The notes beneath the pieces are model-generated. The model ran no database searches, had not been told where the DNA came from, and worked only from the letters and a program-made list of their open reading frames with translations. A DNA stretch of 64,000 bases from Euglena gracilis (lineage: Eukaryota), in contig CP154954.1 in the NCBI GenBank assembly GCA_039621445.1, forward strand, positions 47,781,847 through 47,845,846, in the 5' to 3' direction. The number at the start of each line of letters is the position of its first letter. Positions within the stretch are counted from its first letter, which is position 1. Position numbers and translations under genes: made by a program. Below, piece by piece: positions 21,221 through 63,800 of this stretch.

Positions 21221-24200
21221 TAGACTTAGGCGGCGCTAATTGCCCAACCAATTGTTGCGTTTTTTTTGACGTTTGTTGAGTGTTTTAAAAACCCGCCAAA
21301 GAGGGCACAAAATTTTTGGTTAAGAGGGGTGTGTGGCAAAATTTGGGCCAAAATTTTATGTAAATGGTATTGCGCGGTGTTCCGCTTAAACAATTTACAA
21401 TTGTGGGTGAATTGTGTGAGTTGGGGGTATGTTAGAAGTGCTTGAAATGGGTTGAAAAACACTGACTTTGAATGGGTGTGACATGGGCTGTGTTTTCATG
21501 GTTTGTGTTAATAACAGTATTTGAGAAACAAATGAATATTTGAAGTGTACGCGGATAACCACGTAAAACAAAACAAGAGGTGACAGACAACAGAATTAAA
21601 TGTTTAGGCGGATATCCGCGTAGAATAAAACTTGTACGCGGATTACCGCCTAAAAGTGAAAACAAAGCATGGTACACGGATTACCGCCTACCATAATAGT
21701 TGATGACTTGTAGGAGGGAATCCGCCTTCTGTGTGTAACTATGTGATGAGTGTATGGCGACTTGGTGTAGGCGGGAATCCGTCTGGAGTGAATGAGAAAC
21801 AATGGTGGTATCCTAATAGTGTTGCCCCACCCCTCCCCTGTGTTGATCCCGGCATTGGCCAGACGTCCACGCCTGCTGGGGTCTCTGGAATGGGGGACAG
21901 TAACACCAGAACCAATGGTAGCTGGAGAACTCTCTGACGGCGTGCCACCCGATGATATCCTGCCCTCGCCAACGCTCTTGGATAAAAAATGGTGCCTGTC
22001 TAAAAACAGCCCAAAAACAAAAAAAAGCAGAATTAACTAATTTATGGAACTCCGCAGTCGTAGCATCCGGTATGAGCCAAAACCCACAAAAGCTTTCCAC
22101 CACCAACGATTCTGTTTAGGCGGTTAACCGCCTAACCATCGCCACCCATCAATTCAAAAACACCGATGGAAGCCAAATGCATCGGGTCAAACGTCGACCC
22201 AGTGTTGGTTGAGAACGACCAAGCACCTCTGGTCAGCCATGCCCTTGGGCCCAGCATCGCCCAGCATCGCCCAGCATCGCCCAGCATCGCCCAGCATCGC
22301 CTTTGGAGCCCTTGAAGGTGTACCTATAATGCCTGTTGCTTTTGCCGCTCTAGCCCACTTTTGGTTACTTTTGGCCATCTTTGGTTGCTTTTTGACCACT
22401 TTGACCACTTTTGACTGCTTTTTGCCCACATTGACCACTTTTGACTGCTTTTTGACCACTGTTGCCCACATTTGCTGCCTTTTGACCAATTTTGACTGCT
22501 TCTTGACCACTTTTGCTGCTTTTTGCCCACCTTTGCCCATTTCCAACCACCTTTGCAGCTTTTTTGATCACTTTTGATGCTTTTTGACCACTTTGGGCCC
22601 CTTTTGCCTGCTTTTTGACCACTTTTGACAACTTTTGTTGCTTTTCAACCACTTTTGCCCACGTTTGCTACTTTTTGCCCACTTTTGGCCATTGTTGCTG
22701 CTTTTTGATCACTTTCACTTTTTTTTTACCCACTTTTGCTGCTTTTGACCACTTTTGCCCACTTTTTTACCACTTTTGCAGCTTTCTGGCCACTTTTACC
22801 CCACTTTTGCCTGCTTTTTGACCACTTTTTGACCACTTTTGCTGCTTTTGCCGGAGGATGTGGTGCAGGCCTGTGAGATGGCAACATCGAGTGCAAGTTG
22901 CAAGCCTCTTGCCGGTCAGACAAACAAAATCCAAAACAGTTGTTGTGCTGGAGGGTGGAGGGTGGCACCCCATCTTGTCCATCTGCATCTTGTCCAGTAT
23001 CTGCATCTTGTCCAGTATCTGCATCTTGTCCATCAACTGCATCTTGTCCACCATCTGCATGTTGTCCAGTGTCTGCATCCAGTTCATCTTGTCCAGCATC
23101 GGCATCTTGTCCAGTATCTGCATCTTCTCCGGCATCTGCATCTTGTCCAGCATCGGCATCTTGTCCAGCATCTGCGCCTTGTCCATTATCTGTCCAGTAT
23201 TCATCCGTTGGCTGCTGACCAAGCCAAAATAACCACAAAAGCCCAAAAAATGGCCACAAAAAGCCCAAAATTGACCGCAAAAGGCCCCAAAAAGCAACCA
23301 AAATAACCAAAAATTGCCCAAAAACGCCAACAATGTCCACAAAAGATTGTGAAAAATGACCCAAAATCACCGCAAAAAGGCGCAAAATGGCCAAAAATGC
23401 CATAAAATCTGCTCAAAAAGGCCCCAATTAGCCCAATATTTGCCAAAGCAGCGATAAATAGCCCCCCAAATTTGCAAAAAATTGACCCATTATGGCCAAA
23501 AAGGGTGTAAAACTGGAGCTTTGTGGGAAAATTGACCAAAAATAGTTCAATTCTCCAAAATATACAAAAAAAATGCTAGCATCCCCCAGCATCGCCTAGC
23601 ATCGCCCAGCATCGGAACCCCACCTCTGGTCTCCAAAAATCCAGCATCGCCCAGCATCGCCCAGCATCATCAGAGGTGCTTGAGAACGACCGCCTTCTGG
23701 TTTATCCCCCTTCCACACTGCTTCTGACTGTGCATACCACCGTTGCCTCCTCCGGAGGCATGTTGAAGATGAAGAAGAGCCAGAAAAAAAAGAGGTGGTT
23801 TGGGCATTTTGTCTGAAATTCAGCAAAAACGGCAGCTTTTCAAAGAAAAAATGCTGTAAGACTCCTTTAAAAAAAACAATTAAAAAGGCCTTGAATTTTT
23901 CAGAACTTGGAGGACTCCTTCCGAAAACCCCCCAAAATTTTTCGATTGCTGCCACCGACTGCTGAAACAGGCGTCTCTCCGTCCATATCTTGAATCACTT
24001 CTTCGTCAGCCTTCCCCGAACCCTGATTTTAGGCCACCAAAACCGTTGGGTTCCAGGAGGAGGGCTCTGGGAGGTGCTTTTGTTTCTCCTGAGAAATCAA
24101 CCTCAGGTTTTTTGGCTGTTTTTCGGGACAAAATATCACCTTTACCGCAGCTCACCCGGCCTGGCAACTGACAAATGCGTTCCTCTGCTGTCCATGCAGA

Positions 24201-27052: not shown

Positions 27053-27292
27053 CATGCTTGTGCTTACCGACGGGGGGGGGTGCTATAGGGTGCCTGCCCC
27101 TAGCAGGCACACCCTCCCCGGGGGGGGGTAGGCACACACCCCCCTGCGGGGGGGGGACCCAGAAAATTTTCATTGAAAATGGCCTTTTCCGGGCCCCCGG
27201 CGCCTTCGACGCCGGGGTCGGATCGGGTGCTATGGGGTGCCTGCCCCTAGCACCCCCCCCCCCCGTGGGGCACCCGACTAAGCACAAGCCTG
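27053..27292. mobile_element. MITE (CATGCTTGTGCTTA...TAAGCACAAGCCTG)
   Basis: Imperfect 14-bp TIR; perfect TSD GGCTGGAC. Confidence 0.85.
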
Positions 27293-36076: not shown

Positions 36077-36226
36077 CAGGGGTTTTCTTAAGGACCCCCC
36101 GGGGGGGGGGGGTCCAGCCTCCGGCTGGCAAAAAGGCTGCTGGCTGGAAATGAGCTGCTGGCTGGACCCCCGGGGGGATAGGGGGGGGGGAGGGGGGGTC
36201 CGGGCTGGAGGGGGCTGGGCTGGGCT
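36077..36226. mobile_element. Truncated family A MITE (left end only) inside the NUMT
   Basis: CAGGGGTTTTCTTAAGGACCCC...GTCCAGCCTCCGGCTGGCAAAAAGGCTGCTGG matches the starts of the 1759 and 3569 copies. No right TIR. Confidence 0.88.
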
Positions 36227-37214
36227 TTTCTTGCATTAATCGTACCAGAAATATCTATAACAAATTGCTCTTTAGGGACCCCAGAATCTCAGATTCTGGA
36301 TCTGAAAAAAAAAATAGGAATTTGATCCGAAAATTGATTGATTTCTGCTTTCAGATTTTCTCAATCAAAATTCGGTTTATTTTTCTGTTTAATTGGTTTT
36401 CAACCAGAATCACAGATTAATTAATATTTTGTGCAGAATTTTGCTTGATTTCAGCTGAAAATCCTACTCAAGCATTTTTCTGCATTACATCCTATTTAAA
36501 AAAAATCAGAATCTTTGATTATGGTCTAATTAGTATTTTGATGAGAATTTTGTTAGGAGTGGACCTACGGAATCTTCCTAATTAATTTCTCAACAAATTA
36601 CTTTTTAAAATAGAATCAAAGAATCAGAGCAGAATATTTAGGCGTTTGATCCAGATTTTCCTAATACGATTGGACATAAACAAATTCTGGTATTATCGCC
36701 TATTTATTCTGCCTTATTTTCTTCAGTTGATGTTTATGTTCCCTCAATTGACTTTATTTTCCCTCAATTCCTCAAACATCAAATCCCCACGTCGTCAACA
36801 CGCTCCACATGTCCAAGGAAACACTCGAATTTTAATTTGTCAAAAAAAATGGACCAACAACAATTGACACGATCAAGTCATGAGTTGTGCGACGAAAAAA
36901 AAGGTAAATGACCCTTGCACGATGAAGTTAATGCAGAGAAAAAATCAAAACAAAATGAATCCAAACAAAATGAATCTGTTTGAACCCATGCCTCACAGAT
37001 CAAGCTCAAACCTCTCCGCAATTTTGCTCACCATTTCTTTTTGGCTTGTCGTGTTTTGGGGTGTGGGGGGGGCTGGTGAGGGGGGGTGTGGGGGGAATGT
37101 GGGGTGTGGGGGGTGTGGAGGGTGTGGGGGGTGTGGGGGGGTGTGGGGGGTGTGGGGGGGTGTGGGGGATGTGGGGTGCGGGGTGTCGGGGGTGTGGGGG
37201 TGGGGTTCAATTTG

Positions 37215-44900: not shown

Positions 44901-46501
44901 CAGGAAAGGTCGACAAAGGCAAATGGGCCACTGGCGGAAGGTGGCAATCCCCGGCGACAACTGGGGACTGGGACTCAAACGTTGAACCCATTCTTCTTTG
45001 CAGGCATTTCTGATGGCAGCACTGTGGATGCATGTCTCTCTCAAGCGTCACGCTAAAAATTGAAGACAGCTTCGCTGTTTTGCCCCAGCCAGGGTTGATT
45101 TCCATTATCATCGGTGGCGTTGCTTTTGGTAGCCCTGGAAGGGGGTGTGTGTGCTTGCTCGAAAGTACTTTTGGGGATCCCCTGACACCTGCAAGGAGCA
45201 CAGCTTCCACACGACGTAGGCGGAGGACAGGGCGGTGCACAGCGACAGCCGGGCCCGGTCGTTGCTCACCACGATGAGGACGACGCAGTTGTGGTACCGC
45301 GTGGGGTCAATGCGCTCCGTGGCCACCGGCGTCAGCGGGATGACGAACGACACCTGCGACGGCCAAAACGAAACACCACCCAAGGCGCACCACACACACG
45401 TGCGCGCACACACACACACAAACATCCAAAAAATTCCTGTGCTTTTGGTGGTATCTAACTTGCAGGGGTTTTCTTAAACACCCTGGGGGGGGGGGAGGGG
45501 GATTCCAGCTGGCTCGAAAGGTTCTGGAAAAAAGCTACTGGTTGGACCCCACCCCCAGGGGGTGGGATGCAGGGAGGGTTCGGCCGTCTGGGAGCTGGAC
45601 CCAAATAGCACCAAAGACTTGGCGGAAAAAGCTAAATTCAGTTGAGATGACATTTTACAGCCAAAAGTCTAAGGTAAAATCCCCAATTCCCATTTTTTTT
45701 TCAAAAAATACTTGGCGATTCGTGCCAATAATTCTTCAAATTACCTCAGCTGCGCCGGGCTGTTCCAGACTTAATTTTGGTGGACCCTGAGGGGGGGGGG
45801 AGGTCAGCAGTCCGGATGCGAGCTGCTGGGTGAAAAAGAAAGTGCTGGTTGGCTGGCTAGACCTAGGGAGGGGTCCCCTTCGACGGAAGAAAACCCCCGT
45901 GGGGACCTCATAGACCGTCACCACATCAACCATCCACGTTAACCACCATGTGGGCTTCTCTGGGGCAGACCTTGGTGCCCACGTTGCTGATGGACTGCTC
46001 TGGCAGTGTGGAGGGGGACTGGATCTGGATGGACCCGTTCATCGCCTCCACGAGTGACTTGGACAGCGTCCGCCCCAGGAGGGGACGGCCATCCCGGTCC
46101 CAGCCCAGACATCCCCCACCGACGCAAGCAGGGCGCTGCATTGCGTCCCGGAGCGACGGCAGACAGGCACGCAGACAAAGAGGGCAGCCTTGATGACGCC
46201 GTGACGTGGCGCTGTCTGGCCCTGACCAAGCCTAAGCCGCAGCCTTCAAACCTCCGCGTGCTGCTTTGGTCCACCTGTGGCGAGCGGCACGCACAAAAAC
46301 ATCGCACGCTCACGCAACACAACTCAACACAACGCAACGCAACGCAACGCAACACAACACAACGCAACGCAACACAACGCAACACAACGCAACGCAACTC
46401 AACACAACGCAACACAACACAACACAACGCAATGCAACACAACGCAACGCAACACAACACAACGCAACACAACACCGCAAAACAACACACACACACAACG
46501 C

Positions 46502-46535
<34 letters not shown>

Positions 46536-49500
46536 TTTGAATTTTTTCTTAGAAGCCTGCGAACCATCTTCCAAAGAGTTCTGTAAACAACGAAAAAAAA
46601 TTCCTGGTCATCATTTTGCCCAGATCTTCCCAAAATTTCCCTTACCCGACAAGAACACATTGAACCCATCAAGCAAAAATTGGAACTCCTCACAATTGTC
46701 TCGCCATGTAATAAATCGGGAGAAGCATGGATGTTTGTGAAGCCCCGAGGGGTTCTGACCCCTCCCAACACAGATGGGGGTGAACGGGATGCACTCTCCC
46801 TCCCACCTCGAAACGATAAGGGGCCGGGGAAATTTTCGGTTGTCTCGACGGTCAAAGGATTACCAGGCCAAATAATTGGAAACCCTTGATTTTTCTTTAA
46901 AAAATATACACCAAAAATGTTTGTTCTTCAAAATTTGACTTTCTTACACGTGGAAAACACCAAAACATCCAAAAATGTGCAATATACACTCAAAAGGGAG
47001 GAATAACAGAGAATTTCCTGGTGCACAGTGCAGGAAGAATTTTTTCCCGCCATTTAGAACATTTTTTTGCCAAGGGGTGGGGTCTAGACCACTCCCTCCC
47101 GCCTAGGGGGGTAAGGTGGCGGGGGGGGGGGGGCTCCGGAACCCCCCCAGATGTCAGGACGGGGTGCCACCCTACCACCCAGAGTACCAACGGGCTTCCC
47201 ACACATCCATGGGGAGAAGAATCACATGCTCTTGGGTTTTTGAGCTCTGCCTATTGCCCATTTGGTGGGGGACATGCCTGGGTGAAAGCCTCGAACACGG
47301 TGCTCAGCTTGGAAGCTGGGATGCCCACGCCATTGTCGATGATGGCGAACACAACGTCGATCGGGTCCGACCCCCCGGGGTCGGAGGCAGACAGCGCCTG
47401 CCCGGACGCGTCGCCCGTCCCGACAGACAGCACCGTGAGGTGGTCGAAGCGGCCGCTGGGGTCCACTGTCCCCCGCACGGCGCTGCGCCAGGGACACACA
47501 ACTCCGCAAAGCAACGTGAAGGGCGAAAATGTGTGCGCTGGGATCAATGAATGAAACCGAACGTGGTTTGGCGGAGACCGGCGGCAACTGCAGCGCCTTG
47601 GCTGCTCGCGGGATGCCGAGCGTGCCGTTGTCGGCGGTGCGCGTGCCCGGGATGCTGCGGAAGGAGTCCTCCCCCAACAGCCGGGCCGAGTTGTGGCGTG
47701 CCCCGCCAGGCAATGGCGCACACCTACACACAGGCGCACCCCCCCTGTCAGGTCAGCGAGTAAAGATGTAGGTGACAGGTGACAGGTCTCTATGGTGACA
47801 GGTCAGCGAATGTGGGGCTCAGGTGACAATCAAGCACCTGTGGTCATCCAGAATCCCAGACCAGTCACGCCCAGTCACGCCCAATCACACAGTCACGCCA
47901 ACAGAAATCCCAGGCATCCCAACTGTAAGGGATAGTTTTTTGGCAACTTTTGCCACTTGTGGCTGCTGTTGGCGGGTTTGGCCACTGTTCGCATTCTTTG
48001 CAACCCTTTGTCCACCTTTGGCCACTCTTGTCCACTTCCTTTTTGCTGCTTTGACTGCTTTTGCCACTTTTTCTGCTGCTTTCAAAAGCAACAAAAAGTG
48101 GTCAAAGACGCCCCAAAATGGCCTTAAAATGTCCAAAGCAGCCCAAAAAAGGTCAAAAGCGACAGAAAAATAAACCAAAAAGCAATCAAAACCATCAAAA
48201 AGTGGCCAAAAATGGCCAAAGCGACTAAAAATGGGAAATGTGGACAAAAATGGCCAGACGTTGGCAAAAGCAGCCAAAAGTGGCCCAAAGCAGGCAAATG
48301 GGCCTAACTGGGGTCCTCAAAGCCAGTCATGCAGTCCCGGCGCTTGGTGACAATTTCCCAGGGAGGACAATTTCCTGGGGGGAGCTAGGAATACATATGT
48401 GCTGTGCCTTGTGGCTGCGTGTGGGGGGGGGGTGAAGGGGTGCACACATATGGGAGGTGCTCGTCGACAAAGACAAAGACAACCGGTGCACCGACCCGTC
48501 ATGGAGTTTGGCAGAGGGGGAAAAGCCAAGTGGGGGGGGGGAGGGTGCTGCTGCCACGCCGCCGCTGCCAGGGCCTGGGCCCAGCCGTGGCGTGGGGACG
48601 CCGCCGCCCTCCGCCAGCGCTGCCAGCGGTGCGTCTGTTTGCTTGGCGGGCCGGGGAACTCGAACGGGTGCCGCCAACGCCCCTGCCCCGCCGTCCAGCC
48701 TGGCCAGCCCCCCCACCCGCCCCACCGCAGTGGTTCAAATGAGGAACCAGGGGTTGACTAAGAAATAGAAATTAGGAATTGGGAAACACCACCAGAACCT
48801 GTCTGGGGGGAGGTGGTCAGGACAGTGGCTCTGGAGGACCGAAGGGGCAGTGGGTTGGGTGGGGGGCGTCTGTGTTGGGTTCCTCGATGCTTCTGTCCAC
48901 GGAGAGGGTGAGTGAGCATCGCCTGTTTCTTTGGGCAGCCCGGAAGCACCTCCTCTCACTGAACAATGTGCATATGTCACCTGAAAATGTGCGCACACGT
49001 GGGCACCAAGACAGGCAGGCAGGCAGGCGGAAAGGTGCAAATTGTTGTGGCAAGCGAGCACACCGCACTGTGGGCCCCATGTCGGCCATTGTATACCGTG
49101 ACGTGCCATCGTCGGGCGTGGCTTTGCTGCAAAGAAAAAGCCAAGGCAAGGGCTTCGCAGCGCTGCAGGACCGGCGGGGGCTAATCGAGGCAGCGAACCA
49201 CGGCTCAATTCGCATGCATATGTTTGTGGTTATGGGGGTTGCCCTTGCCCCCGCCTTCAGCCAAGTTGGCAAGGACAGCTCAACCCCCCCCCCCCCGAAT
49301 AGAAGCCCCCCCCCCCCGAATAGGAGCCCCCCCCCCCCGAATAGTAGCCCCCCCCCTCGGTTTTCGACCAAAATTCCAAATAGTGCCCCCCCCCCCCCCG
49401 TTTGGTAGGCCCCTGCCCGTGGATCTGTCAAATGGGACGGATGGCACTTTGGCTTCTTCAGGCATTGGTTAAAATGAGGGTTGGGTGTTTTTATGTTTCA

Positions 49501-52500
49501 TGATCTAATGCATCCACAAGAGTAACATTTGCAAATTTGACATGGTTTGGAAAGGTAGGACATGTGGACCCACAAAGAATTTTCTTCGATAATTCTCGGA
49601 CCCCTTGGTTTTCGACCACTTTTCCGAATAGTGCCCCCCCCCCCCGAATAGAAGCCCCCCCCTCGGTTTTCGACCAACGTTCCGAATAGAAGGCTTCTAT
49701 TCGGGGGGGGGGTTTAGCCCCCCCCCCCAATTACAAGCCCCATTCCCAATCACCCCCCCCCAAAGCGAACCCACCTCCTGCTCCGGTTTCCCTCCAAAAA
49801 TCCGAATAACAACTGGACCTCCCCCCGCAGGGAGGTCCAGTGCATTCGACCGAAATGCGCCAGAAGTGGAAGGAAAGCTGGCAATGTCTGCCCGAAACCA
49901 GGGTCACTTTGGGGCATCCTTGTAACATCGCCCATCCTCCCAAAACATCAAAAAGCGTGTTTTTTGACTTGAAATTTCGACCCAGTTCGATCCCCGGACC
50001 TGCCTCAGCCGCCCTTTGGCCGAGGTCAAACAGGGGTCCTTAAATTGAAATCTCCCCCTGTGGTTTTCCAAATGTGACCGAATGATAACCCGAGGGGCGG
50101 GGGTTGATTAGGGAAGGCTAGTTAGCATTGGTCAGCCAACTTCCTGGGCGGGACGGGAGTTGACATTTTTTTTTGGGCCACCCACAAAAAACGTGCACTT
50201 TCCCAAAAACGGGAATGGGTAAAGTTCCGGGAGGAAAACTTGGAGGCCAACTCCCTGTGGTTGGCCAGGTTGGGCAGCTAGGGAGGGTTAAATACAATGG
50301 GGGCAATAAACCCCCCGACTTAGAAACACCCCCCCACTTGTGAACCCCCCCCCTTCAGGCCAAACCTGAACATAACCCCCCCCCCCTCACTAGGAAAGAA
50401 AAACGAAAGCCGCCGGGGACGATTTTTTTCGGCCGCAAACCACACAAAAAACTGATTTTTTGGCAACTTTTTTTGACCACTTATAAACCCTCCCCTTTGG
50501 CAGACCAACCAAAGCAGATCCTATAAACCCCGGGGGGTTTAGAAGGGGGGCTAATTATTTGCGCACCCCCAAATGTTGTGGGCGGTACCCAACCCCCCAG
50601 CCCCAGGGCCTCTGCCAGCCTGTCAAGGCTGAGAGAGCAGTGAGTTGGTCAAGGTGACCATTTTGGGCTGAAAATGGCCAAAATTGTGGAAAATAAATTA
50701 TAAAACAATTATAAATATAAAAAAAAACGCAGGTGGAAACAGGGGCATATGAGGCTATGCGGCACGAGGCGGGACACCGGAGGCAGAGGCAGATCTCCCC
50801 ACTGTGGGGTGTGAAGCGGATGGCGTTCTGCAGCAGGTTGACCAGTGTCTGGCGGATCTTCACGGCGTCCCCCAGCACCACCGCCGGCAGGTCGGGCTCG
50901 ACGTGCAGTGACGCCTGTTGGGGAAGGGGATCTGCAGGGGCTTGTTGGAACACATACGGCTTGGCGGCAGAGGAGGAATTGGACCATCACTTCTGACAAG
51001 CTGCTCGACCTCCCCCCTGACTTGACGGATGATTATGGGTAATTTTTCTGAAAAAAATATTTTCTGATTCATCATAATATTCAAATTCAATTTTAAAAAC
51101 TTTAAAAAAGTCAATCTACACATTTATAATCCTTCCGACTTTCTGACTTCATTTACCTATCAATTCATGTATTATTTAACTTTTGGAGTTCTAAGGAGGA
51201 GGCTCTGTGGCCATATGCGCCTCTTCGTCCTGTCAATTTATCTGTCGAATTTCACACGAACTATATTGACCTGCCAGTCCTGCACGTGGGTGTTTGTTTT
51301 GTTGCGAATGGGTGTAGCATGGTGTGTGACTCAGCGCATTGTGTGATGCGCGTGCGTCCATGTGTGTGGCCTGGGGCGGAGGAACCGGCAGGACACCTTC
51401 AGCTTCTTGGCCACCAGCTCGGAGTCCGTGATGGTGAACGCCTCATCCGCCAGCTCCTCCAGGCAGAACGGCGTCAGCTCCAGCACCACCTCGCTCTCCA
51501 TGAGCTGCGCCAGCTGCAGCGCCCCGTTGACGCGGTGCAGCAGCGCCTCCCCGCACAGCTGGCCCCCGGGCGACCCCGGGAAACGACAAACAAACATCAC
51601 GCCACGCGGGTGCGGGTGAAGAGGGTGTGCCGGTTCTGTCGGGGTCTGCCCCTGAATTCTGTGCCGGCTTCCAGCCAATATTGTCCCTCGGCCCAAATCG
51701 GGGCCGTCATCCTCCAATCCAACGAGATTCCACCAATGCAACTCACACCCCAGCGTTATCATCATCTTGAGACAGGGCACCAACCAGGAGGGGCAGGGGG
51801 GGGGTAGCCACCGATAAGAAGAAGACCATCGCACGCCCTCGGGTCAGGGCCAGGCCAACACGGTAAGCAGTTGGGGTGGGGGTGGCCCGGCCGGATGGTG
51901 TGTGCGGACTGCCGCATTGGGTGGTCCGCCAGGGCCTCTTCCAGGAGCTCTGCGTGGCCGATTAGCCCCGCGATGGACGAGGCCTGGGACTCAAAGAGGG
52001 AATGTCACGTCCCCGCCAACTATATCCCCCTCAAAGATCTTGAAAAATTTGCCCAAATAAGGTACCCACCCATATTTTGGTTGGAGGGGCTACGCCGAAA
52101 AACACTTACAATGCAAAATGCACTGAAATAACACAACACAATGCAATACAAGCAAAATGACACAACCTAAAAGCAATCACGCACAACGATCATGTGCAAA
52201 CCGAGGACCCTGTGCCCATCACAGGTACATTGCCAAGGCCTGCCGGGGGTGCGCAGCTCGTGGCTCATGCCCATCAGGAAGTTGGCCTTCATCGTCACCT
52301 CCGCACGGTGCATCTCATGGATGTTTTTGATGGCCCGCAGCAGGCTGGAGTACTTCCCGATGAGCTGCGCCTGTGCCTGGACAGGCAGAGGGGGGAGGGC
52401 ACACCCCGTTTCACGGGGGGGGGGGGCACATCCCAGGGTTGCGGGTCAGCACTCGCGATGGGTGGGGGGGTGGGTGGGTTGGAGCATCGGAGGCTGACCT

Positions 52501-55199
52501 GGAGGTCCTTCAGGAGGGCGGCGGTGCTGGCGATCCACTGCTCTGGCTTGGCATCCGGTAGTCCACAGAATGAGCCCTGCTGCTTCTCTCGGACCTGGGG
52601 GAGGGCGACAACAGCTTGAGTACGACTTCAATGGGTTTCAAGGGGTGGCCATCCGTTTACGGCAGTTGTATTATCGTTCTTGGAAATATGATTTTGCGTT
52701 CTGTGGAACAATCGATTTTTTCTCAGTCATCACATCAAAATGCATACACAACAGGATTTTGTCCCTGCTTTGATGCTTGATTTGGAAGTTGTTGGGAAAA
52801 CTTTGGATAATCACATAATTGCTGCACAGCTACATTTTCGGGCACAATACATCTAACTGTACACACGGCACAAATATTTTTATTTGCAGTTTTCTTGCGT
52901 TTTTTTTTTTACTTTGACAAAATTTGCATTGTTTCGCGCGTTTTTATTATTATATGGTTTTATGTTTTTTTCCTGCCAATTTGCCGATTTTTTACTCGTA
53001 AGTTCTTTCGACTTGGGGAAAAAACCACAAAAGAGGTAGGAGACAGGTTGCTATAACAAAACGTCAGCGGATACAGAAGGTGAAAGACAGTTTCCCAGGG
53101 AGGGTTTGGGTCAGAGGGAAAAATCTCGACATTTTCAATCCCGTTGACAAAAAAAAATGGAAAAGCATCTTTTTTTCACAAGATTGTCACCAGAAGCCTG
53201 AAAAAAATGTTTGCAAATTCTTTTAACCCTCCGAAATGGCCTCTTGGAAAACAAAATATTAAAAACTTTTGAAAAATTTCTTAGGAGACAGGTCAGTGGG
53301 TACAAGGTAGGAGACAAATCCTTCTGAGAAAAACTCAGTGGGTGTGGGAGGACAGTTTTCTGGGTAAGACAGTTTCCCGGGGGGGGTAGCATGCAAATAA
53401 GTGGGGGGGAACCCCCATTCCATGGGTCCCAACTCGCCCCTCCCCCACCGACAATTGTTCCCCGACACCTGGGGAGAGGAGTCACTTTCCACTTTCAAAA
53501 AACCAATCACTTTTCAAAATCCAGTCACCCACTTCCTACCCCCCCTCCCCCCCGGCTGCCCTGGGGGGATTGGTCACTCTGGCCACTCCAGCCAAAATGG
53601 CCCAAAATCAATGAATTCTGAACAAAACCCAAAAAACTTTTTGGAACCTTTGGCGATGGGTGGCCAATTTCAGCCAATCCTGGCGGATCCCCTTCCAAAA
53701 AAAGACACCCCCCTTGAATGGGGTCTGGAGAGAAAATCAAATCAGTCACTCCAAAAAAACCAGTCAGTCACCCCACAGGGGGGGGGGTCGGACACACCTT
53801 AGCAATAATATGGGCCCAACCCACCCATCCAACCCTCCCCCTCCAGTCACCAACCTTAAAACACTCCAATCCCAACTTTGGAAAAACCACAGACTGGCGC
53901 CACACCGTGATGAGGGTCTCCACCACCTCCTCCACTGGCCGGAGAGCAGCAGCAAATGCCCGACCGCAGCCCACCGACCAGTGCAGCAGCCCCAGTGTCA
54001 CGATGACGAAGAACAGCACATACGCTTGGATGGCGGCTGTGAACAAGCACCTGGTGGTCATCCAGAATCCCAGACAAATCACATTCAGTCACGCCCGATC
54101 ACCTCAGTCACGCTCACTCAAACCAGTTGTCACACAGAAATACCAGTGCCAGAAACAGCCAATGTTGGCCAAAAAAATGGCCAAAACGGTCAACTATGTG
54201 TGTATGTATGTATGTATGTATGTATGTATGTATGTATGTATGTATGTATGTATGTATGTATGTATGTATGTATGTATGTATGTATGTATGTATGTATGTA
54301 TGTATGTATGTATGTATGTATGTATGTATGTATGTATGTATGTATGTATGTATGTAGTATGTATATGTATGATGTATGTATGTATGTATGTATGTACGTA
54401 CAAATGTATGTATGTATGTATGTATGTATGTATGTATGTATGTATGTATGTATGTATGTATGTATGTATGTATGTATGTATGTATGTATGTATGTATGTA
54501 TGTATGTATGTATGTATGTATGTATGTATGTATGTATGTATGTATGTATGTATGTATGTATGTATGTATGTATGGTTGTATGTATGTATGTATGTATGCA
54601 TGTATGCATGTACGTATGTATGTATTCATGTATGTATGCATGTTTGCATTCATATATGTGTATGCAATACGTGTACATGTATGTACATGTGTGGGCCATA
54701 CGTGAGTATTTTGGCTGATGTGTGTGGCCATTTGTGGCCACCTGCAGATGTTTTATAGATATTGCATTGTATGTGTTAAATATGTGTGTATATGTATGGA
54801 TGGATGGATGGATGGATGGATGGATGGATGGATGGATGGATGGATGGATGGATGGATGGATGGATGGATGGTGGATGGATGGATGGATGGATGGATGGAT
54901 GGATGGATGGATGGATGGATGGATGGATGGATGGATGGATGTGTGTGTGTGTGTGTGTATGTATGTTTGTTTGTATGTATGTGTGTATCTATGTATGCAT
55001 GCATGCATGTATGCATGTATGTATATATGTATGTATGTATGTATGTAAATGGCTAAAAGCGGATAAAAAAGGGACAAAGGTGGCCAGAATGTGGCCAAAA
55101 GAGGCCAGAAGTGGCCAGATGTGGCGCCCAGTCATTCATAGATGCTTGGCTGTGACTTGGGGGTTGCGGTCCAGACACACAGTCGCGTCGAATCCGCCG
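38547..55199 (-). CDS. Hybrid sensor histidine kinase (TM - HisKA - HATPase_c - degenerate receiver - receiver), multi-exon
   Basis: TM exon 53906-54038 ([19 protein letters not shown]); H box [15 protein letters not shown] (~52245-52376); N box [21 protein letters not shown] (~50775-50914); G1/F box [22 protein letters not shown] (47278-~47480); G2 box [16 protein letters not shown]+[12 protein letters not shown] (46228-46274, 45971-46070); receiver VLVAEDN (41156-~41340), [12 protein letters not shown] (~40563-40679), IVATTAD (39169-~39228), [10 protein letters not shown] (up to 38748). The stop position is taken from the open frame. Confidence 0.93.
39373..39810. mobile_element. MITE family E, copy 1
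   Basis: TIR CAGGCATTCGCTTAAGG...CCTTAAGCAAATGCCTG; perfect TSD CCCCCTAC. Confidence 0.92.
39998..40426. mobile_element. MITE family E, copy 2
   Basis: TIR CAGGCTTCTGCTTAAGG...CCTTAAGCAGAAGCCTG; TSD GTTTCAGC/GTTCCAGC. Internally similar to copy 1. Confidence 0.92.
47831..48346. mobile_element. MITE family D, subfamily 2 (passenger inside an intron)
   Basis: CAAGCACCTGTGGTCATCCAGAATCCCAGAC...GGCGCTTG; perfect TSD GTGACAAT. Confidence 0.88.
54044..55148. mobile_element. MITE family D, subfamily 2, coinciding with a non-canonical intron (54039-55151)
   Basis: CAAGCACCTGGTGGTCATCCAGAATCCCAGAC...AGATGCTTG; TSD GCTGTGAA/GCTGTGAC. Coding sequence abuts both sides. Confidence 0.87.
54195..55045. 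repeat. Compound microsatellite (TATG)n, (GGAT)n and (GT)n
   Basis: Read directly from the sequence. Confidence 0.97.
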
Positions 55200-55764
55200 T
55201 CCCCCAGGTCCCTCTGACCAGGAGGGGTCTACGCTGCGGCTTACCCTCCCAACCCCATTGCTTCAATTTGGGGTTCAGCCGATCCACCCAAGGGGTTGCT
55301 TAAATGTGGGTTTCGCCAAACACGCCGAGGGGTCCCTCAAATTCAGAACAAACGGTCAACAGAAAAATGCCTCTTCTTGTTCAAATAAAGGGAGGAAGAG
55401 ACGCCTCTTGGCCTTTGGAGCAGACATGGCCCCAAAAACCGGCACAGACTCAATAAATTTGGCTATTTTCCCTAAAATTGTGCTATTTTTTGTTTGTTAA
55501 TCTTGCTCCACTTTCATATTTTCTTGTATTTTCCTTCTTTTCTTCGAAATTTCAAGGGTTTGCTTAAATTTGAAATTCTCATTGGTCGCCATGGGGTGCT
55601 AAAATTTTGGGATCCGTTGAATTTGGGTGTCGGTTGGTTCAGGCCCAAGGGTTGCTTAAATCTGCGGGGCCTCCCACGGGGTTTAACAAATATACGGCCT
55701 TTGCACCGATAGGGGGGGGGGGACGGCGTCAGAGTCAGACACGGAGGGGGTCGAGGAGGGCCCT

Positions 55765-58700
55765 GGCTGGTGTAGCACTCTACGGAGGGGGGGACGGCCC
55801 CGAGGGGCTGGTACAGCGTCAGGTTGCCCACCGCCAGGCCGCGCAGGTCGGCGCCGTAGTGCTGGACGATGAGGCTCAGCACGCGGCGTCATGGCCGGCC
55901 CCACCGCGTACTTTGCCCCCGCCCAAGACCCCAATAGCCCCCTTCCTCCCGCCGACCAAACACCTTCGGTCACCCACCCCTTTGGGTCCCGCATCGTTCC
56001 TTCGCCCTGCATCGCCTTTGAGGCCATTGATGGGCCCTTTTTTCTTCTTGGTTTTTATCGCCTGCTTGTCCTCACTTTTGGCCCTTTTGTGCTACTTTTG
56101 GCCACTTTCGGCCATTCATTGCCACCTTCGGCCACCTTTGCTCACTTTTGGCCACGTTTGGCTGATTGATCCGCATCCGCTCCAATGCCAGCATCTCCAC
56201 ATCTTCTTCAGTCGCCGCATCCCTGGATCCACTCCAGCAAGCACATCCCGCGTTTACTCCAGTAGCTGCATCCCCGCATCCGCTCCAGTAGCTGCATCCT
56301 CACACCTGCTCAAGTGCCACATCCCGCATCTGCTGCAGTGGCCGCTCCGGCGGCAATCATCCCGCATACACTCAATACCCGTATCATCGCATCACCGCAT
56401 CTCGTGGTTGAATTCCACACCACACAAAAATGGCACAAAATAATCAACGATCGTCAAAATGGGCAAAAAAAATGACCTAAAGCGGGTCAGAAGTCACCAA
56501 AAAAAAAATGCCAAAAAAAGGACAAAAAAATGGCCAAGAATAACCCGAAGCAGGAGAACGTGGTCAAAGATGACCAAAAGTGGGTAAAAGCAGCCAAAAA
56601 TGGCCAGAAATAGGCAAAAAAAAACAATGGCCGAGAGGTCAACATAGACCAAAAGGGGCCAAAAATGGACAAAAAAAAACAACCCAAAATGGCCAAAAGT
56701 GGCAAAAAGTGGCAAAAATCTCCAAAAGAGGCCAAAATGAACAGCGATGGCCAAACAGCAATGGCCTGAAAAATGCCCGCATCGCCCTGCATCGCTGTGC
56801 ATCGCCCTGCATTGGAACCCCACCTTTGGCCTGCAAAACTACTACATCGCCCTGCGTTGCCCTGCTTCGCCGAAGGTGCTTGCGCTCGACAGGTGCAGAT
56901 GCTACACGATGTTTTCAACAGGGGAGGTACCGGAGCCACACCGAAGGATGGGGTACGTGCCTTTTGGGGAGACGTGGTTCCCTGAGCTGCCCCAATCACC
57001 CTAAAAAATACAAAAAGTGCGAGGTGAAGGTTCAAAAAGTGCAAAAAATTATGATGGGTAAAAAATTCTGTTGTGCAAAAAACACAAATTGTGCAAAAAG
57101 GCAATTAACTTACAACTCCCCCCCGCACAAAACTGATTTCAGTCCAGCGAAAAAGACACTGTTGCCTGAGGAGACTTTGGGTCAGTTTGCACTGTCCCAC
57201 TGGAGAATGCCACAGTTGGCTGCCCATGGCTGCGAACGGAGGTCGAGTGGTCCACCGTCCAATATGTCGGAAACAGGTGGGCGGGTCCACACAGGCCTAC
57301 GAGGGATGCTGCGCTGGGGGCAGTGCTTGGGCTGCTTACCAACATCGAACTCCGGTTGTTTTCGGCTAGCCCCGGGAGGGGGGGTAGCCAGGGCGGTCCT
57401 TACGCAAAAAAAAACCTGTCCCCGTCCCGGCATACAGACAAAATTGAAAAAAAAACTCGAAACCCACATTTTTTGGCGTTTTCGGTTGATGGGCGATGGT
57501 TCAAGGGGGCAAATCACTTTTCCCGAATGAAAAGAAATGGGAAAAAAGAATCCTGTTTCATGAAGGTCACCCTGGGTTTGGCCCCAGATTCTGCTGGCCT
57601 CCACGTCACACAGTTTCCTGGCTTTGCCCGTGGAAAGGGTTGCCTGGGGAAGGAGCCAGAAATTCATCGGCCGCTTCAGCTGGCCGCACGCAAGGTCTCT
57701 TCGTTGTCTGCACTTGTGCTCCCCCCGCCCGCTGGGCAGGGACCAGCAGGGGGAGGAGGCGCTGGGTGAGGGCGACGCTGTCCGCCGACGGCCCGGTCCA
57801 CGCCCCCGCCAGCACCAGCGCCAGCAGCAGGGCGACGAACAGCAGCAGCCGCAGCCCGCTGGCTGCCGCCTTGAACGGCTCCCCGACACCGATGCCTGAC
57901 TGCGGGGCGGCAGGCAGGGGTGTGGTCACAGTTTGGTCACACATAGTCATGCGGCGCAGGGGGGGGGCAAATTAAGATGTACCATGTGGTGGAAGTGCAC
58001 AGTGCCCAGGCTCTGATCCAAGGGCAGGCTGGGGGGGGTTGGATCCAGGAGATCTCCAGTCCAGGAGGGGGGGGGGCGGGACACCCCCCACCTGACAGGC
58101 TTCTTTTCAAGACCCCGGCGGGAGGGAGGGGGTTCGACGTGGGACCCCCCCGGGGGTCTTTTGACTTAAAAAGAAGCCTGCCACCTCTTCTGGGGGTCCC
58201 ACATCCCCCCTGGCACATGCCCCCCTGGGTTGGTCTGCAGGTTGGGGGGGGGTCCGGACCAAGCACCTCTGGTCACCCATGTCCTTGAGCCCAGCATTGC
58301 CCTTAGAGGTGTACCTGTTGTACCCACATTCAGTCAGATACCTCCATCCAATACAGAGCATCCAATACGGCATCTGCATACACTTCATCCACTATTATCC
58401 ACATTTGGTCATCTACCCACTTGTACAACTTTTGGTCGCATTGGACACTTTTGGCCACTTTTGGCTACTTTGCCCGATTTAACCCACCTTTGGCCGCCTT
58501 TGGCTTGCTGCTACTTCCTGATATGCTTCCGATTTTACTGCTGATTGATTGCTTTGGCCCCTTTAAGACCACCATTGGCGGCTAAAGCCAATTTTAGACC
58601 ATTGGCCACAAGCATCTCCCCTTATCCCTTATTTCATTTGGCCAATCCAGCATCTGCATCCACTGCACTAATCCAGTATCTGCATCTTGTCCAATATCTG

Positions 58701-61700
58701 CATCCATTGCACCTTGTCCAATGTTAATGTGTGCATCTTGTCCAGCACCTGCATCTTGTCAATAATCTTAAGCTTGTCCAGTATCTGCATCCGTTGCACC
58801 TTGTCCAGCATCTGCATCTTGTCCAGCATCTGCATCCATTGCATCTTGACTAACATCTGCAACCACTGCATCTTGTCCAATATCTGCATTGAATCTTGCC
58901 TTATCCAATATTCACACTCATCTTATCCAATATTTGCGTCTTGCGTAATGTCTTCATCCATCCAAAATAACCACAAAAACCTAAAATGGACCACAGAAAG
59001 CCCCAAAAAGCAACCAAAATGACCTAAATGGCTTGAAATAACCCGAAATTGTCTAAAAATGCCAACAATGTCAACAAAAGATTGTGAAACATGACCCAAA
59101 ATCACCAAAATTGTGCAAAATGTCCAAAAAATGGCATAAAATCTGCTCATATTGACCAAAATTAGCCCAATACTTGCCAAATAAGCGACAAAGAGCCCCC
59201 AAATTTGCAAAAAAATGATCCAAAATGCACAAGATGAGTGTAAAAATGGAGATTTGTGAGAAAATTATCCAAAAATGGGTTTAATCCTTCAAAAATTGCA
59301 AAAAAAATGCCAGCATCGCCCAGCATCGCCCAGCATCGGAACCCTACCTCTGGTCTCCAAAGATCCAGCATCGCCCAACATCGCCCAGCATCATCAGAGG
59401 TGCTTGGTCCGGACCCCCCTCCAGGGGGGCACCCCCCAACCTAAACCGCTTATGCCCTCTTTGTATCGAAGCCTGGGCACCCCCTCCCCAAGGTCCTTTG
59501 AACCCATACAGGCCCAACATGTGGAGGGGGGGGGCGGACCTTCTGGAGGCGGAGGGCCGGGGGACGGCCCCACAGGCCGCGCACCGCTCGGGCGAGGCGG
59601 GGGGCGTGGGCGACGGTCTGGATGAGCACCGCCAGCTGGTACACGGGCAGCAGCGTGCCGCTGTCCCGGTCGGCCGGGAGCAGCAGCGCCATCTGGACGA
59701 TCAGCACCGCGGCGGCAGGGCCTCCTCGTGGCTCGTGGGGGTGGGGGGGGGGGGAGATGGGGCAGACCAAAACAGTAAACCCCTTGAAGGGAGGGAGGTG
59801 GTCCTTTTTAGGTTTGTCCCGTCCAAGAGGGTCTTTTGAAAGACGCTGAGCACGCGACCCCATGACTCCTCCCTCTGTCCCTGTGGGGGTCGACGTGGGG
59901 GGTTGCCCGGGGATGGGAAGGGTCTCTCCGTGTCTCCACGCTGCTCCCCCACCCTGCCAACCATTTTTTTTAAAAAACAAATCGGCCTGGCATGCACTGA
60001 AGGCGGTCGTTCCAGCAGCCCTGAGGATGCAGGAGGGGGGCGCCCTGGGGGAGGGCCAGGGTGTCGAATCCGAGGGCAAGGCTGTCGGAGAAGCAGAGCC
60101 GCCGCTGCCGCCACCCAAGCCACGCCCCGGCCCCGAAGTCCGTGAGGTGGAGGAGGAAGAGGCCGAGGAAGACGGGCCCAGGGCATGGCCGCGCGGGCCG
60201 CTGGGGTGGGGGTGGGGGTGTTGGTGGGTGTCGTTTCCGAAAGCACTTCGCAGGGGGGGGGCAAATTGGGCAGTGGTCCGAAACAGTCCGGAGCAGTCCG
60301 GAGACGGCCTGACAGGAGGTTTGTACGGAAAAATGCAAGAGAAAAGAAATAAAAATTATGCCGATTAAATGATACATAAAGCGAATGCTAGTGGTCGGTA
60401 CCAGGCAGAAACAAATTCTCATCACTCCCAACACTTCTTTAACAATCTGCCGGAAACCACTGGAGTTCCCTGCTGGTAATTGACATCCTGTTCGATTGCT
60501 AAATTTCTTCATTTATTTTATTCCATTGTCGTGCTGAACTTGTGATAGCCGCAATGTTTGCACCGAGGAGTTGTACAAAGGCAACTTTTGCAGAACGAAA
60601 CTCCGCCAATTCCCCGACGGGTCGTTTCAGGATACCTGCCAACTTCTCATTATCCCAACGGCCCCGCACCTCGCTCACCCGCAGCAAAGGGGCCACCCCC
60701 CGGGCAGCGATGACCACGCCGGGGTGCAGTGGGAGGGCCAGGGTGAGCCAGCTCCACACGACGGACAGCGTCCCCACCGCCCCACTGGCCAGGAGCCAGT
60801 ACCGGGGGCACGCCGTGCACTGCTGGCACAGAGCAACCGGGTGGGCCCAAGGGGAGCGGAACGATTGACACACAACTGCTGTGTGACCACAAGGGACGGC
60901 CGAAAGCAGTCGCCCTGAAAAACATAAAACAATTCCAAACCGATCAAAATATCAAACAAGACGGATGGAAATGTGAAATGGGACTCCAACCCGGTTCGGG
61001 GTTCATCCAAAGGGAAAATGATGCTGCTGATCATTCAAAGGGGTGGAAAATCGTTGCTCTATTGCTGTCCTTCATTTCAGACTCTTCACACAAAGGATAC
61101 TCTTTGCCACGGAGAGTAATGGATACGGGCCTGAACAATGGGATTCGCTTGATGCCGGAGACCTCTTTTGGAGGCACAGATGCATTCGTGAGCTCCCCAC
61201 CACCGTTTCTCTTGAGGGCTGAGGCTGACCCCAATCCCGAGCCCCCCGACGTGCGGGGCCCGGCGTGGCCAACTGTGCCGCAGCTGCTGCACGGCGCCGG
61301 CCGGCCGCCGGGGCCGGGGCTGCTGCTGCAGCAGCTGGTTCAGGGCCTCCGGCGCCTCCTGCAGCGTCGCCATCTTCTGCTCCGCCTGCTCCAGCCCCTG
61401 CCCTGGGGGGGGGGGAAGTGGCGACCCAAAGCGTGGGGAGTCCTGGAGGGCCCTCGGACTCCTGCCCAGGGTTCGTTATAAGGGCAGGTGGGGAGGGGGG
61501 TCTGGACCTGTCTGGCAGGGGGGTTAGGCGGGGCGGGACCCCCCCCACCAACCCCCCCCCCCACCTAAACAATGGTGCCATCTGGGTGACCAAATTCTTT
61601 GCGCCGGGCCGAAAGAATTTGACCCTCAAAAGGGCCAAAAAATGCGATTTTAGGTACATTTGGGGCTCAAATTTGTCAAAAACGCAAAAAACTTTTGCCG

Positions 61701-62959: not shown

Positions 62960-63800
62960 ACACACACACACACGCGCGCGCGCGCACACACACACACAGA
63001 CGACAGACAAATGTGGGTGGGATGGGTGCACGTGCATGACTGACATTGGGTTCATGTCAGACATACACTTAATGTGTTCACAAAGACTTGGTGGACACAA
63101 ATTGTATTTGGAGAACCAAAATGAATACAACAAAACTCTTGTGAACACATGGGAACACACAAAAAAGTTCGTTGAACACAAAAAAATTGATAACATGTAA
63201 AGTGAATAGATTAGATTGCCGCAATGGGTTCTACTCCCCGTGCCGTCTGGTGGTTTTTTTTAAGTCTGGGGCGGGCTAACCAGGCCCCCCCCCACCCCTC
63301 CCCAGGGGAGGGGGATCGAGGAACCAAACTTGAAGAAAAAAAACTTGGTGCCATCCGGGGCGGGAGAAAAGGAAGAAATCGGATCTGCGGAGAGTTAAAA
63401 AAATGTTCATTTGCTTTGACTCAGTAAAATAATTTTTTTATGGTGAACGCATGATACACAGAAAAATTTGGGTGAACACACTAACTGAATGTCTGGTTCA
63501 TGTGTGACGTGCAAAATCAACTGCACATACCTGTTGATGTGGAATTCAGTTTTTCCGGGAGAAGGTAGGAAGGCAGACCTAAAATCCAGGCTGCCCGGGA
63601 TCGCTTCGCTTCGGACGCTGCCCTTCGCCAGGCTGGACTCCGACTTCTGGAGTTCCATCACGGCGTGGGAGTACATTCGGGACAAGGCGGGAGGCTCGCA
63701 GGGAGGGCGGCCTGCCTGGGAGCTGCCCATTTGGTGTCCCTGTGGCCGGGAGGCCCACCTGAACAGAGTGCACCTTGCCGAAAAGCAACCCGGAACGTTT
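55765..63800 (-). CDS. Further hydrophobic/coding exons, probably the N-terminal multi-pass membrane region of the same histidine kinase (gene assignment uncertain)
   Basis: GC3-rich open stretches at ~55765-55885, 57730-57900 (LRLLLFVALLLALVLAGAW), 59570-59720 (VLIVQMALLL...VYQLAVLIQ), 59990-60190, 60678-60830 (YWLLASGAVGTLSVVWSWLTLAL, followed by a GTGAG donor), 61260-61400, 62600-62770 and 63590-63800. All share the kinase strand. Junctions were not fully traced. Confidence 0.55.
58260..59406. mobile_element. MITE family D
   Basis: TIR CAAGCACCTCTG...CAGAGGTGCTTG; perfect TSD GTCCGGAC. Same internal minisatellite as 22220-23682. Confidence 0.93.
62826..62998. repeat. (CA)n microsatellite
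   Basis: Read directly. Others at ~13335-13460, ~30050-30096, ~38880-39030, ~42309-42400 (CAA/CAG) and ~46315-46532 (CAACA/CAACG). Confidence 0.97.
63058..63495. mobile_element. MITE related to family C
   Basis: CAGACATACACTTAATGTGTTCAC...GTGAACACACTAACTGAATGTCTG; perfect TSD GTTCATGT. Confidence 0.87.

Follow-up and report, generated by a model that had tools for sequence, protein, structure and literature searches.

Background

The closest described systems to the element analysed here are the nonconventional introns of euglenids. These introns lack GT-AG borders, and their ends pair from +4 and -6, with a 3-nt spacer at the donor and a 5-nt spacer at the acceptor; a purine opens the next exon, and a direct repeat at the junction makes the intron 'slidable'. 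The splicing code established by the experiments of PMC12501133 has one spacer of 3 nt and another of 5-6 nt, and requires that the following exon open with a purine. According to the same source, 61.2% of the nonconventional introns of E. agilis conform to the CDG-CH'G form of the code, and single substitutions in CAG or CTG abolished splicing. The most conserved letters given in PMC3935182 are CA-TG, at +4,+5 and -7,-6. The introns are stated in PMC11282704 to leave as full-length circular RNA, after the conventional introns have been removed. An origin from MITEs was put forward as a hypothesis in 2013, before any euglenid transposons had been identified (PMC3935182), and the origin was still called unclear in 2025 (PMC12501133). 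It matters because such introns are the majority in at least one Euglena genome, with 71.8% of E. agilis introns being nonconventional (PMC12501133). The preliminary description of the locus had cited pairing of +4..+6 with -8..-6 and the MITE hypothesis as published, and both agree with PMC11282704, PMC12501133 and PMC3935182. We found no published case of a repeat-family member acting as a euglenid nonconventional intron, and PMC12455990 contains no mention of hAT, MITE or TIR.

Introns made by transposons are described for other eukaryotes in PMC11282704. Introners (Micromonas, Aureococcus and others) are MITE-like insertions into exons that are removed together with duplication-derived letters, so that the coding sequence is restored; they bring along or recruit GT/GC-AG sites and depend on the spliceosome for their removal. 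In Fritillaria borealis and Amoebophrya, introns with non-canonical boundaries carry duplications and inverted repeats at the ends, and their removal is ascribed to a modified spliceosome (PMC11282704).

The anatomy of the element brings two further systems into the comparison. MITEs of the hAT type (Ac/Ds, hobo, Hermes) duplicate 8 bp of the target, have short inverted repeats that begin with CA(G/A), and contain subterminal short repeats; G is the fifth terminal letter of the hAT consensus, and the target preference is palindromic, of the nTnnnnAn type. In maize, Ds elements are removed from RNA imprecisely, by way of cryptic spliceosomal sites. A maize Ds behaving as an intron was reportedly described by Giroux et al. 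in 1994.

Anatomy of the element and its host gene

The analysed stretch of 64,000 nt of Euglena gracilis DNA (hereafter, the window) contains on its minus strand a part of a histidine-kinase gene, in which the element, e1, is located. The features of the locus are as follows.

46000..55214, minus strand: part of the histidine-kinase gene, open frame through 14 exon pieces, 13 introns
55156..55185, minus strand: start of the exon upstream of e1, 30 loose contig letters identical to the window
53904..54042, minus strand: downstream exon, predicted membrane helix and kinase linker; RNA contigs reach 54042
54044..55148, no strand assigned: e1, 1105 bp, CAAGCA..TGCTTG ends
54036..54043, no strand assigned: left copy of the target-site duplication of e1, GCTGTGAA
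55149..55156, no strand assigned: right copy of the target-site duplication of e1, GCTGTGAC, its last letter retained in the mRNA
54195..55047, no strand assigned: TATG/GGAT-type microsatellite expansion in e1, about 77% of the element
54039..55151, minus strand: probable intron, in the register fitting the nonconventional layout (AGC, CAA...TTG, TTCAC; the next exon begins with A)

The CAAGCA of e1 begins at 54044 and its TGCTTG closes at 55148. The termini are formed by CAAGCACCT and the reverse complement of CAAGCATCT, a short inverted repeat in which 8 of the first 9 letters match. The first 70 nt at the 5' end are family-specific; e1 also has subterminal repeats of the AGTCACGCC type and, towards the other end, a repeat of the GTGGCCAGAA type. 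The two flanking copies of the duplication agree in 7 of 8 letters, and the only mismatch, the A at 54043, is the last letter of the left copy and is absent from the mRNA in all nine registers compatible with it. Excision of 54039-55151 takes out 1113 nt, that is, the 1105 bp of the element plus the 8 bp of one duplication. The ends, the 8-bp duplication, the location of its mismatch in the intronic part, and the removal of exactly one duplication had all been proposed in the preliminary description, and all of them stand.

The placement of e1 within kinase coding sequence, also proposed there, is borne out by the gene reconstruction. The histidine-kinase gene has six conventional and seven nonconventional introns, and its joined exons keep the frame open over 462 codons. 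The H, N, G1, F and G2 boxes of histidine kinases can be read by eye in the joined translation; the Pfam matches are partial (HisKA, E 0.009; HATPase_c, E 0.003). Among longer proteins searched for the exon beside the e1 junction, none of the 50 candidates matched at E <= 0.001.

The mRNA junction

Two sequencing runs from different studies, X15 and X18, each contain one contig in which 53904-54042 is followed by the 30 letters of 55156-55185, a 30-mer that is unique within the window. Thus 54042 is joined to 55156, as predicted from the DNA, and 1113 nt are absent at the e1 site with the reading frame remaining open. This junction is seen as a contig loose end beside the element, not as a scored joint, in runs whose RNA nature is a guess. 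The contigs extend at least 255 letters past 55156-55185, and the frame permits the upstream exon to continue to about 55214.

The same contigs lack the 12 other introns of the gene (11 listed joints and one implied by contiguous record coordinates), and the DNA run X1 has a depth of 0 at each of the 11 listed joints. In X24, a declared RNA run from which 41 reads aligned, the raw reads back 9 of the 11; this run has virtually no reads at the e1 junction, where the depth of the last bin is 0 to 0.09. The exons flanking e1 are represented by RNA contigs with no listed differences in those pieces. Because the X15 and X18 contigs show the e1 join along with 12 skipped introns, we conclude that the gene is transcribed, that 55156-55185 belongs to an exon, and that splicing does not resort to a GT-AG alternative. 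The preliminary description had named three outcomes that would speak against it, namely GT-AG junctions in cDNA, sequence upstream of e1 that is not exonic, and an untranscribed pseudogene; the contigs show the opposite in each case.

The splice register

The same mRNA is obtained from nine registers in all, 54043-55155 shifted by 0 to -8. None of the nine has GT/GC-AG ends, and the two minus-strand reading frames on either side of the intron are in phase, which confirms the earlier reading of an in-frame join devoid of GT-AG. The register 54039-55151, picked among the nine to fit the rule, has the form N3-CAA..TTG-N5 followed by a purine, A, at the start of the next exon, with CA at +4,+5 and TG at -7,-6. 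In this register, which is the probable one, e1 shares several features with the euglenid nonconventional introns: (i) the absence of GT-AG, (ii) ends that pair from +4 and -6, (iii) a donor spacer of 3 nt and an acceptor spacer of 5 nt, (iv) the purine that opens the next exon, (v) the direct repeat at the junction that makes the intron slidable, and (vi) the presence of conventional introns in the same gene.

The end duplex of the e1 intron comprises 9 bp, +4..+12 with -14..-6, at -12.8 to -15.5 kcal/mol. The position of the pairing fits, and its stability is unexceptional since 69 of 500 shuffles were as stable. The motif pair CAA / TTG is complementary, but the G and C of the CDG / CH'G pair are replaced, which places e1 outside the code as published; the supplementary datasets of PMC12501133 may list CAA-TTG introns. 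A non-slidable intron of the same gene, 47471-47603, likewise has CAA at +4..+6. Nonconventional introns of the kinase gene that would be older show between 1 and 6 duplication-like matches out of 8, where chance would give 2.07. A further difference from the described introns is that e1 is a recognisable multicopy transposon with a near-intact 8-bp duplication; the sources cited above treat such an origin as a hypothesis.

The repeat family and the class of 8-bp duplications

Four further copies of the family, one of them putative, were identified in the window.

47831..48346, no strand assigned: e2, a relative of e1, 516 bp, perfect duplication GTGACAAT
58260..59406, no strand assigned: e3, family copy, 1147 bp, inverted repeat CAAGCACCTCTG matching at 12/12 letters, perfect duplication GTCCGGAC
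22220..23682, no strand assigned: e4, family copy, 1463 bp, the same inverted repeat at 12/12, perfect duplication AGAACGAC
56238..56882, no strand assigned: e5, possible older copy, left end CAAGCACAT, right end CAAGCACCT (minus strand)

The first 70 nt of e1 and e2 are 87% identical. As the preliminary description had stated, e2 is a close relative with an intact duplication and an ordinary passenger. It is nested in the nonconventional intron 47700-48578 of the same kinase gene. The possible copy e5 has internal GGCCAAAA-type repeats, and its flanking 8-mers, read by eye, agree in 5 of 8 letters. The terminal 9-mer CAAGCACCT occurs seven times in the window against 0.62 expected, a number reached in none of 100 shuffles, and six of these occurrences lie at the ends of four elements. 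The family is abundant in the genome: the DNA depth of X1 is about 32,400 in the bin with the e2 terminus and about 170-180 in single-copy bins (about 190-fold), and at least 10 contigs with flanks unlike each other break exactly at 47831. RNA data cover two of the five copies in the window, of which one is an intron and the other is nested in an intron. A metagenome scan with the 22-nt family terminus and an Rfam search of the window both returned no matches.

Elements of this design are not restricted to the family. At least 10 CA..TG inverted-repeat elements in the window are flanked by exact 8-bp duplications. Among 831 CA..TG pairs (inverted repeats of at least 9/10 letters), exact flanking repeats of 5, 6, 7, 8 and 9 letters were found 1, 1, 4, 8 and 0 times, respectively; the test was masked and length-specific, as a shifted-flank control was swamped by microsatellites. 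The control dinucleotides CT..AG and GG..CC gave 5 and 7 exact 8-mers, counts that we tentatively attribute to a CTAGTCGGCC repeat cluster and poly-G. Of 19 candidate elements, 13 have duplications that start with GT or end with AC; the background rate is 10.3%. Continuity of open reading frames over the 'empty sites' of 15 elements was not discriminating: a median of 46 codons was reached in the background, and another frame scored better than the true one of e1.

The e1 family resembles hAT MITEs in its 8-bp duplication, CA(G/A) short inverted repeats and subterminal repeats, and the GT....AC half-sites of those 13 elements recall the palindromic target preference of hAT. It differs from them in having C as the fifth terminal letter of e1; no hAT transposase was found in the window, where 20 ORFs of at least 230 aa matched no Pfam family. 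These features point to a probable hAT affiliation, and the family may instead be P-like.

Proposed explanation and alternatives

We consider it likely that e1 is a MITE that inserted into an exon of the kinase gene and is removed from the RNA, together with one duplication, by the nonconventional machinery. According to this explanation, a non-autonomous cut-and-paste DNA transposon (MITE) that makes an 8-bp duplication would have landed in a coding exon of the histidine-kinase gene. Once transcribed, its short terminal inverted repeats would pair over 9 bp in the pre-mRNA, starting at +4 and ending at -6. The machinery of nonconventional introns would then cut at two points, one lying 3 nt upstream of the 5' repeat and the other 5 nt downstream of the 3' repeat. 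As these two offsets sum to the 8 bp of the duplication, the transcript would lose the element and a single duplication copy, and the pre-insertion frame would be restored.

The same mRNA would be produced by an empty site, and the contigs could thus come from an element-free haplotype or a near-identical paralogue, the e1 allele being an unspliced null. The e1 junction is known only as a contig loose end, and two haplotypes exist at the locus in X1, where one contig at 51404-53205 differs in 18 letters of 1799 nt and both forms occur at some positions; within-species diversity of nonconventional intron positions is also noted in PMC12501133. Such a presence/absence polymorphism is nevertheless unlikely, given that e1 is placed exactly in the layout of the organism's other nonconventional introns and that its sole duplication mismatch lies in the removed copy, the retained copy keeping the ..AC end preferred by the family. 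Moreover, the insertion is not fresh, as indicated by the 87% identity to e2, the large microsatellite and the 7/8 duplication; even so, the RNA contigs agree with the exons on either side. The mRNA probably derives from the allele carrying e1.

With the element present in the transcript, two other readings concern how it is removed and what it is. The conventional spliceosome might excise e1 at non-canonical sites, e.g. AG..AC, considering that the mechanism of nonconventional splicing is called unknown in PMC11282704 and PMC12501133 and that the spliceosomes of Fritillaria and Amoebophrya have adapted to transposon-derived non-canonical introns (PMC11282704). This is very improbable in view of the absence of GT/GC-AG from every register, the pairing of the e1 ends at positions typical of nonconventional introns, and the last 30 letters of the intron, in which no pyrimidine-rich tract is read by eye; cutting by the nonconventional pathway is the better-fitting account. 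Nor is e1 likely to be an old nonconventional intron whose transposon-like ends and flanking repeat arose by chance. Its inverted repeat matches in merely 8/9 letters, and short direct repeats flank 84.4% of E. agilis introns (PMC12501133), but the 70-nt terminus common to e1 and e2, the enrichment of the terminal 9-mer, the perfect 8-bp duplications of the relatives of e1, and the roughly 190-fold depth of the family terminus make such a coincidence hardly credible.

Comparison with transposon-derived introns

Like an introner, e1 is a MITE-like exon insertion whose removal takes duplication-derived letters with it and restores the coding sequence. Unlike introners, it has no canonical sites: neither the element nor its duplication supplies GT/GC-AG. 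The Micromonas introner given as an example in PMC11282704 has a 3-nt duplication, whereas that of e1 has 8 bp, with the offsets fixed at 3 and 5. The introns of Fritillaria borealis and Amoebophrya share with e1 the non-canonical boundaries and the inverted repeats and duplications at the ends; the duplications of Amoebophrya are of 3-5 nt (PMC11282704) versus 8 in e1. Maize Ds provides a parallel for a hAT-type element in an exon that is removed from RNA, and differs in that the removal of e1 is exact.

Implications for euglenid nonconventional introns

The MITE idea itself dates from 2013. What is new is a transposon from a high-copy family that has kept its duplication nearly intact and is missing from an mRNA at the offsets of the experimentally defined code. 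Thus e1 offers a concrete specimen for the hypothesis of a transposon origin of euglenid nonconventional introns and makes this hypothesis testable. It also accounts for the 3/5 asymmetry of the splicing code, whose two spacers add up to one 8-bp duplication. It would also extend the tolerated splicing motif to CAA-TTG. The suggestion of the preliminary description that the family as a whole creates precisely spliced introns is supported by this single element.

A broader reading, to which we give even chances, is that euglenid nonconventional splicing is an RNA-level eraser tuned to one transposon class, that the majority of nonconventional introns descend from such elements by decay, and that the CAAGCACCT family is a recently active intron-maker. 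In elements with CA(G/A)...(C/T)TG ends and 8-bp duplications, the cuts would fall 3 nt ahead of the paired termini and 5 nt beyond them; therefore, any insertion into a transcribed exon would be removed with exactly one duplication.

Probable excision of the element from the host-gene transcript

The host gene of the studied element (e1) is a histidine kinase gene on the minus strand, with partial matches to HisKA and HATPase_c in its ORF fragments. To follow its transcript, data of four runs were mapped over 46000-54190, the stretch beside the e1 microsatellite: a DNA run (X1), two (X15 and X18) of six runs with a small share that are RNA by guess, and a declared RNA run available as raw reads (X24). 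One contig each from X15 (3161 nt) and X18 (3586 nt), which belong to different studies, aligned as a chain of exons with 11 listed joints; a twelfth (52592 to 53904) was obtained from contiguous record coordinates. In the DNA run X1 the depth was 0 at all 11 listed joints, and 9 of the 11 were supported by X24 raw reads; thus, the two contigs represent cDNA. The features at the insertion site are as follows:

Features of the e1 insertion site
54044-55148, element e1, 1105 bp, starting with CAAGCACCT and ending with GATGCTTG
54036-54043, left flank of e1, GCTGTGAA
55149-55156, right flank of e1, GCTGTGAC

The alignment of both contigs extends to 54042, beyond which each has 30 further letters (agreement 1) that are exactly 55156-55185, the sole such site in the window. 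Hence 54042 is joined to 55156, and the 1113 nt missing from the RNA correspond to e1 plus exactly one copy of its 8-bp target-site duplication, as had been predicted from the sequence for both the mRNA junction and the removed segment. X24 coverage is near zero at the exon 53904-54042, so this junction is drawn from the X15 and X18 contigs. The duplication copy kept in RNA ends with AC and the discarded copy with AA, which has drifted from AC.

The same junction could have another source: mRNA from an element-free allele would be identical to that of the spliced e1 allele, and X1 does contain a second haplotype at the host locus, which differs over 1799 nt (51404-53205) by 18 substitutions and 7 gaps, all of them intronic by position. 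No DNA copy of the host gene devoid of introns was found in X1 at the 11 listed joints. At position 47287, four of four runs have G, versus A in the window.

With e1 spliced out as an intron, the exon coordinates from the RNA contigs yield a single open frame of 462 codons across 14 exon pieces, in which the H, N, G1, F, and G2 boxes of histidine kinases were recognised by eye, and a membrane helix is predicted directly downstream of the e1 position. The 13 introns comprise 6 conventional (5 GT-AG and 1 GC-AG) and 7 nonconventional ones. The next intron upstream, ending at 55200-55215 (minus strand), seems by sequence reading to combine CTG at -8..-6 and a purine after the intron with a ..CAG acceptor of the conventional kind, and is possibly a "both-motif" intron.

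Nonconventional layout of the e1 intron

Because of the duplication, 9 cut registers are possible, and none of these mRNA-compatible registers has GT/GC-AG ends, which agrees with the earlier claim that no GT-AG occurs at this junction. The register 54039-55151 reads AGC, CAA...TTG, TTCAC on the coding strand, and the next exon begins with A; complementary trinucleotides thus occupy +4..+6 and -8..-6, with a spacer of 3 nt before the first, one of 5 nt after the second, and then a purine. The same layout has been defined via knock-in experiments (PMC12501133) and is also given in PMC11282704, and the paired ends named in the preliminary description match it. The e1 pair is CAA-TTG rather than the published CDG-CH'G (PMC12501133), and so lies outside the strict code. 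CA at +4,+5 and TG at -7,-6, the most conserved letters of nonconventional introns according to PMC3935182, are present. A possible 9-bp duplex between the intron ends begins precisely at +4 and -6. In energy this duplex does not stand out, as 69 of 500 shuffles reach the same stability. Another nonconventional, non-slidable intron of the host gene (47471-47603, minus strand, 133 nt) has CAA at +4..+6, GTG at -8..-6, and an inverted repeat of 10/12 (CA[A/C]GGCGCTGC), and is spliced despite the unpaired third motif position.

The e1 transposon family

The inverted similarity of the e1 ends is limited to some 9 letters, with 8 matches. TATG/GGAT-type microsatellite makes up ~77% of the interior (54195-55047), and a GTGGCCAGAA-type short repeat is located close to the right end. 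The window has 7 copies of the terminal 9-mer CAAGCACCT versus 0.62 expected (7 reached in 0 of 100 shuffles), and 6 of the 7 copies are placed at the ends of four elements. The relatives of e1 are:

Other family copies in the window
47831-48346, e2, 516 bp, 87% identity to e1 over the first 70 nt, GGCCAAAA-type internal repeats common to both, perfect duplication GTGACAAT as first described
58260-59406, e3, inverted repeat 12/12, perfect 8-bp duplication, CCCAGCATCGCC subterminal repeats
22220-23682, e4, inverted repeat 12/12, perfect 8-bp duplication, CCCAGCATCGCC subterminal repeats
56238-56882, e5, which may be a fifth, older-looking copy

In X1 the summed depth is ~32,400 in the bin with the e2 terminus versus ~170-180 in single-copy bins, where the older nonconventional introns of the host gene lie. 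In the same run, ten contigs with unlike flanks end exactly at 47831. Shorter family copies elsewhere are indicated by several contigs in which 47890 is directly followed by ~48310. Summed RNA-contig depth over the e2 terminus (47644-47917) is ~495 in X15 and ~375 in X18, several-fold above that of the host-gene transcript contig (78 and 127, respectively), so that RNA, too, is rich in family termini. The nonconventional intron 47700-48578 (minus strand), within which e2 is nested, has its own 9/12 inverted repeat and a 6/8 duplication-like match, and looks like an older element harboring a younger one.

CA..TG elements across the window

With tandem repeats masked, 831 CA..TG pairs had inverted repeats matching in 9/10 letters or more. 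Exact flanking repeats of 5, 6, 7, 8, and 9 letters numbered 1, 1, 4, 8, and 0, respectively, and the 8-mer flanks rose to 10 with inverted repeats of at least 8/10 letters. Many elements start with CAGG and end with CCTG.

CA..TG elements with an inverted repeat and an 8-bp duplication, exact or 7/8 (mostly CAGG..CCTG, some nested in each other)
1758-2255
3569-4261
3764-3880
7549-7863
16241-18725
16463-18198
27053-27292
39373-39810
39998-40426
46726-47211, within the conventional intron 46274-47276
63058-63495

Duplications starting with GT or ending with AC were found in 13 of 19 candidates (at most 1 mismatch) versus a 10.3% background, which suggests a palindromic target GTnnnnAC; some few candidates in this set probably paired by chance. 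The palindromic half-site preference, 8-bp length, and CA(G/A) termini presumably recall hAT elements. No transposase was found in the 20 long ORFs of the window.

Some control hits of the duplication scan are attributed to a distinct repeat structure at 9497-10415, a CTAGTCGGCC / GGCCGACTAG inverted-repeat cluster with TCGGCCGA-type flanking repeats. A block at ~33900-36700 has a G+C content of only ~22% versus 50-60% in the rest of the window, carries short dispersed repeats and no internal ORF of at least 90 aa, and has a weak CA..TG pair at its borders (34169-36648; inverted repeat 8/10, flanks 7/8).

Implications for the origin of nonconventional introns

A MITE origin of nonconventional introns, which the preliminary description named as an existing hypothesis, is hypothesised in PMC3935182. 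A 2024 review (PMC11282704) describes these introns as having TIRs and TSD-like repeats, a transposon origin is given as a hypothesis in PMC11170887, and the origin is said in 2025 to remain unclear (PMC12501133). In the openly searchable full texts consulted, we found neither a report of a repeated-family transposon acting as a nonconventional intron nor a connection between the 3 + 5 spacing and an 8-bp duplication.

Six nonconventional introns of the host gene fit the code register, in which they have duplication-like matches of 3, 4, 6, 1, 4, and 7 of 8, with a chance mean of 2.07; in this small sample, the values are consistent with decay of older insertions. The donor spacer of 3 and the acceptor spacer of 5 add up to 8, the length of the duplication. 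In the proposed mechanism, the splicing machinery would measure the 3- and 5-nt distances from the paired element termini; since these fixed distances sum to the duplication, the pre-insertion sequence would be restored for any element of this class.
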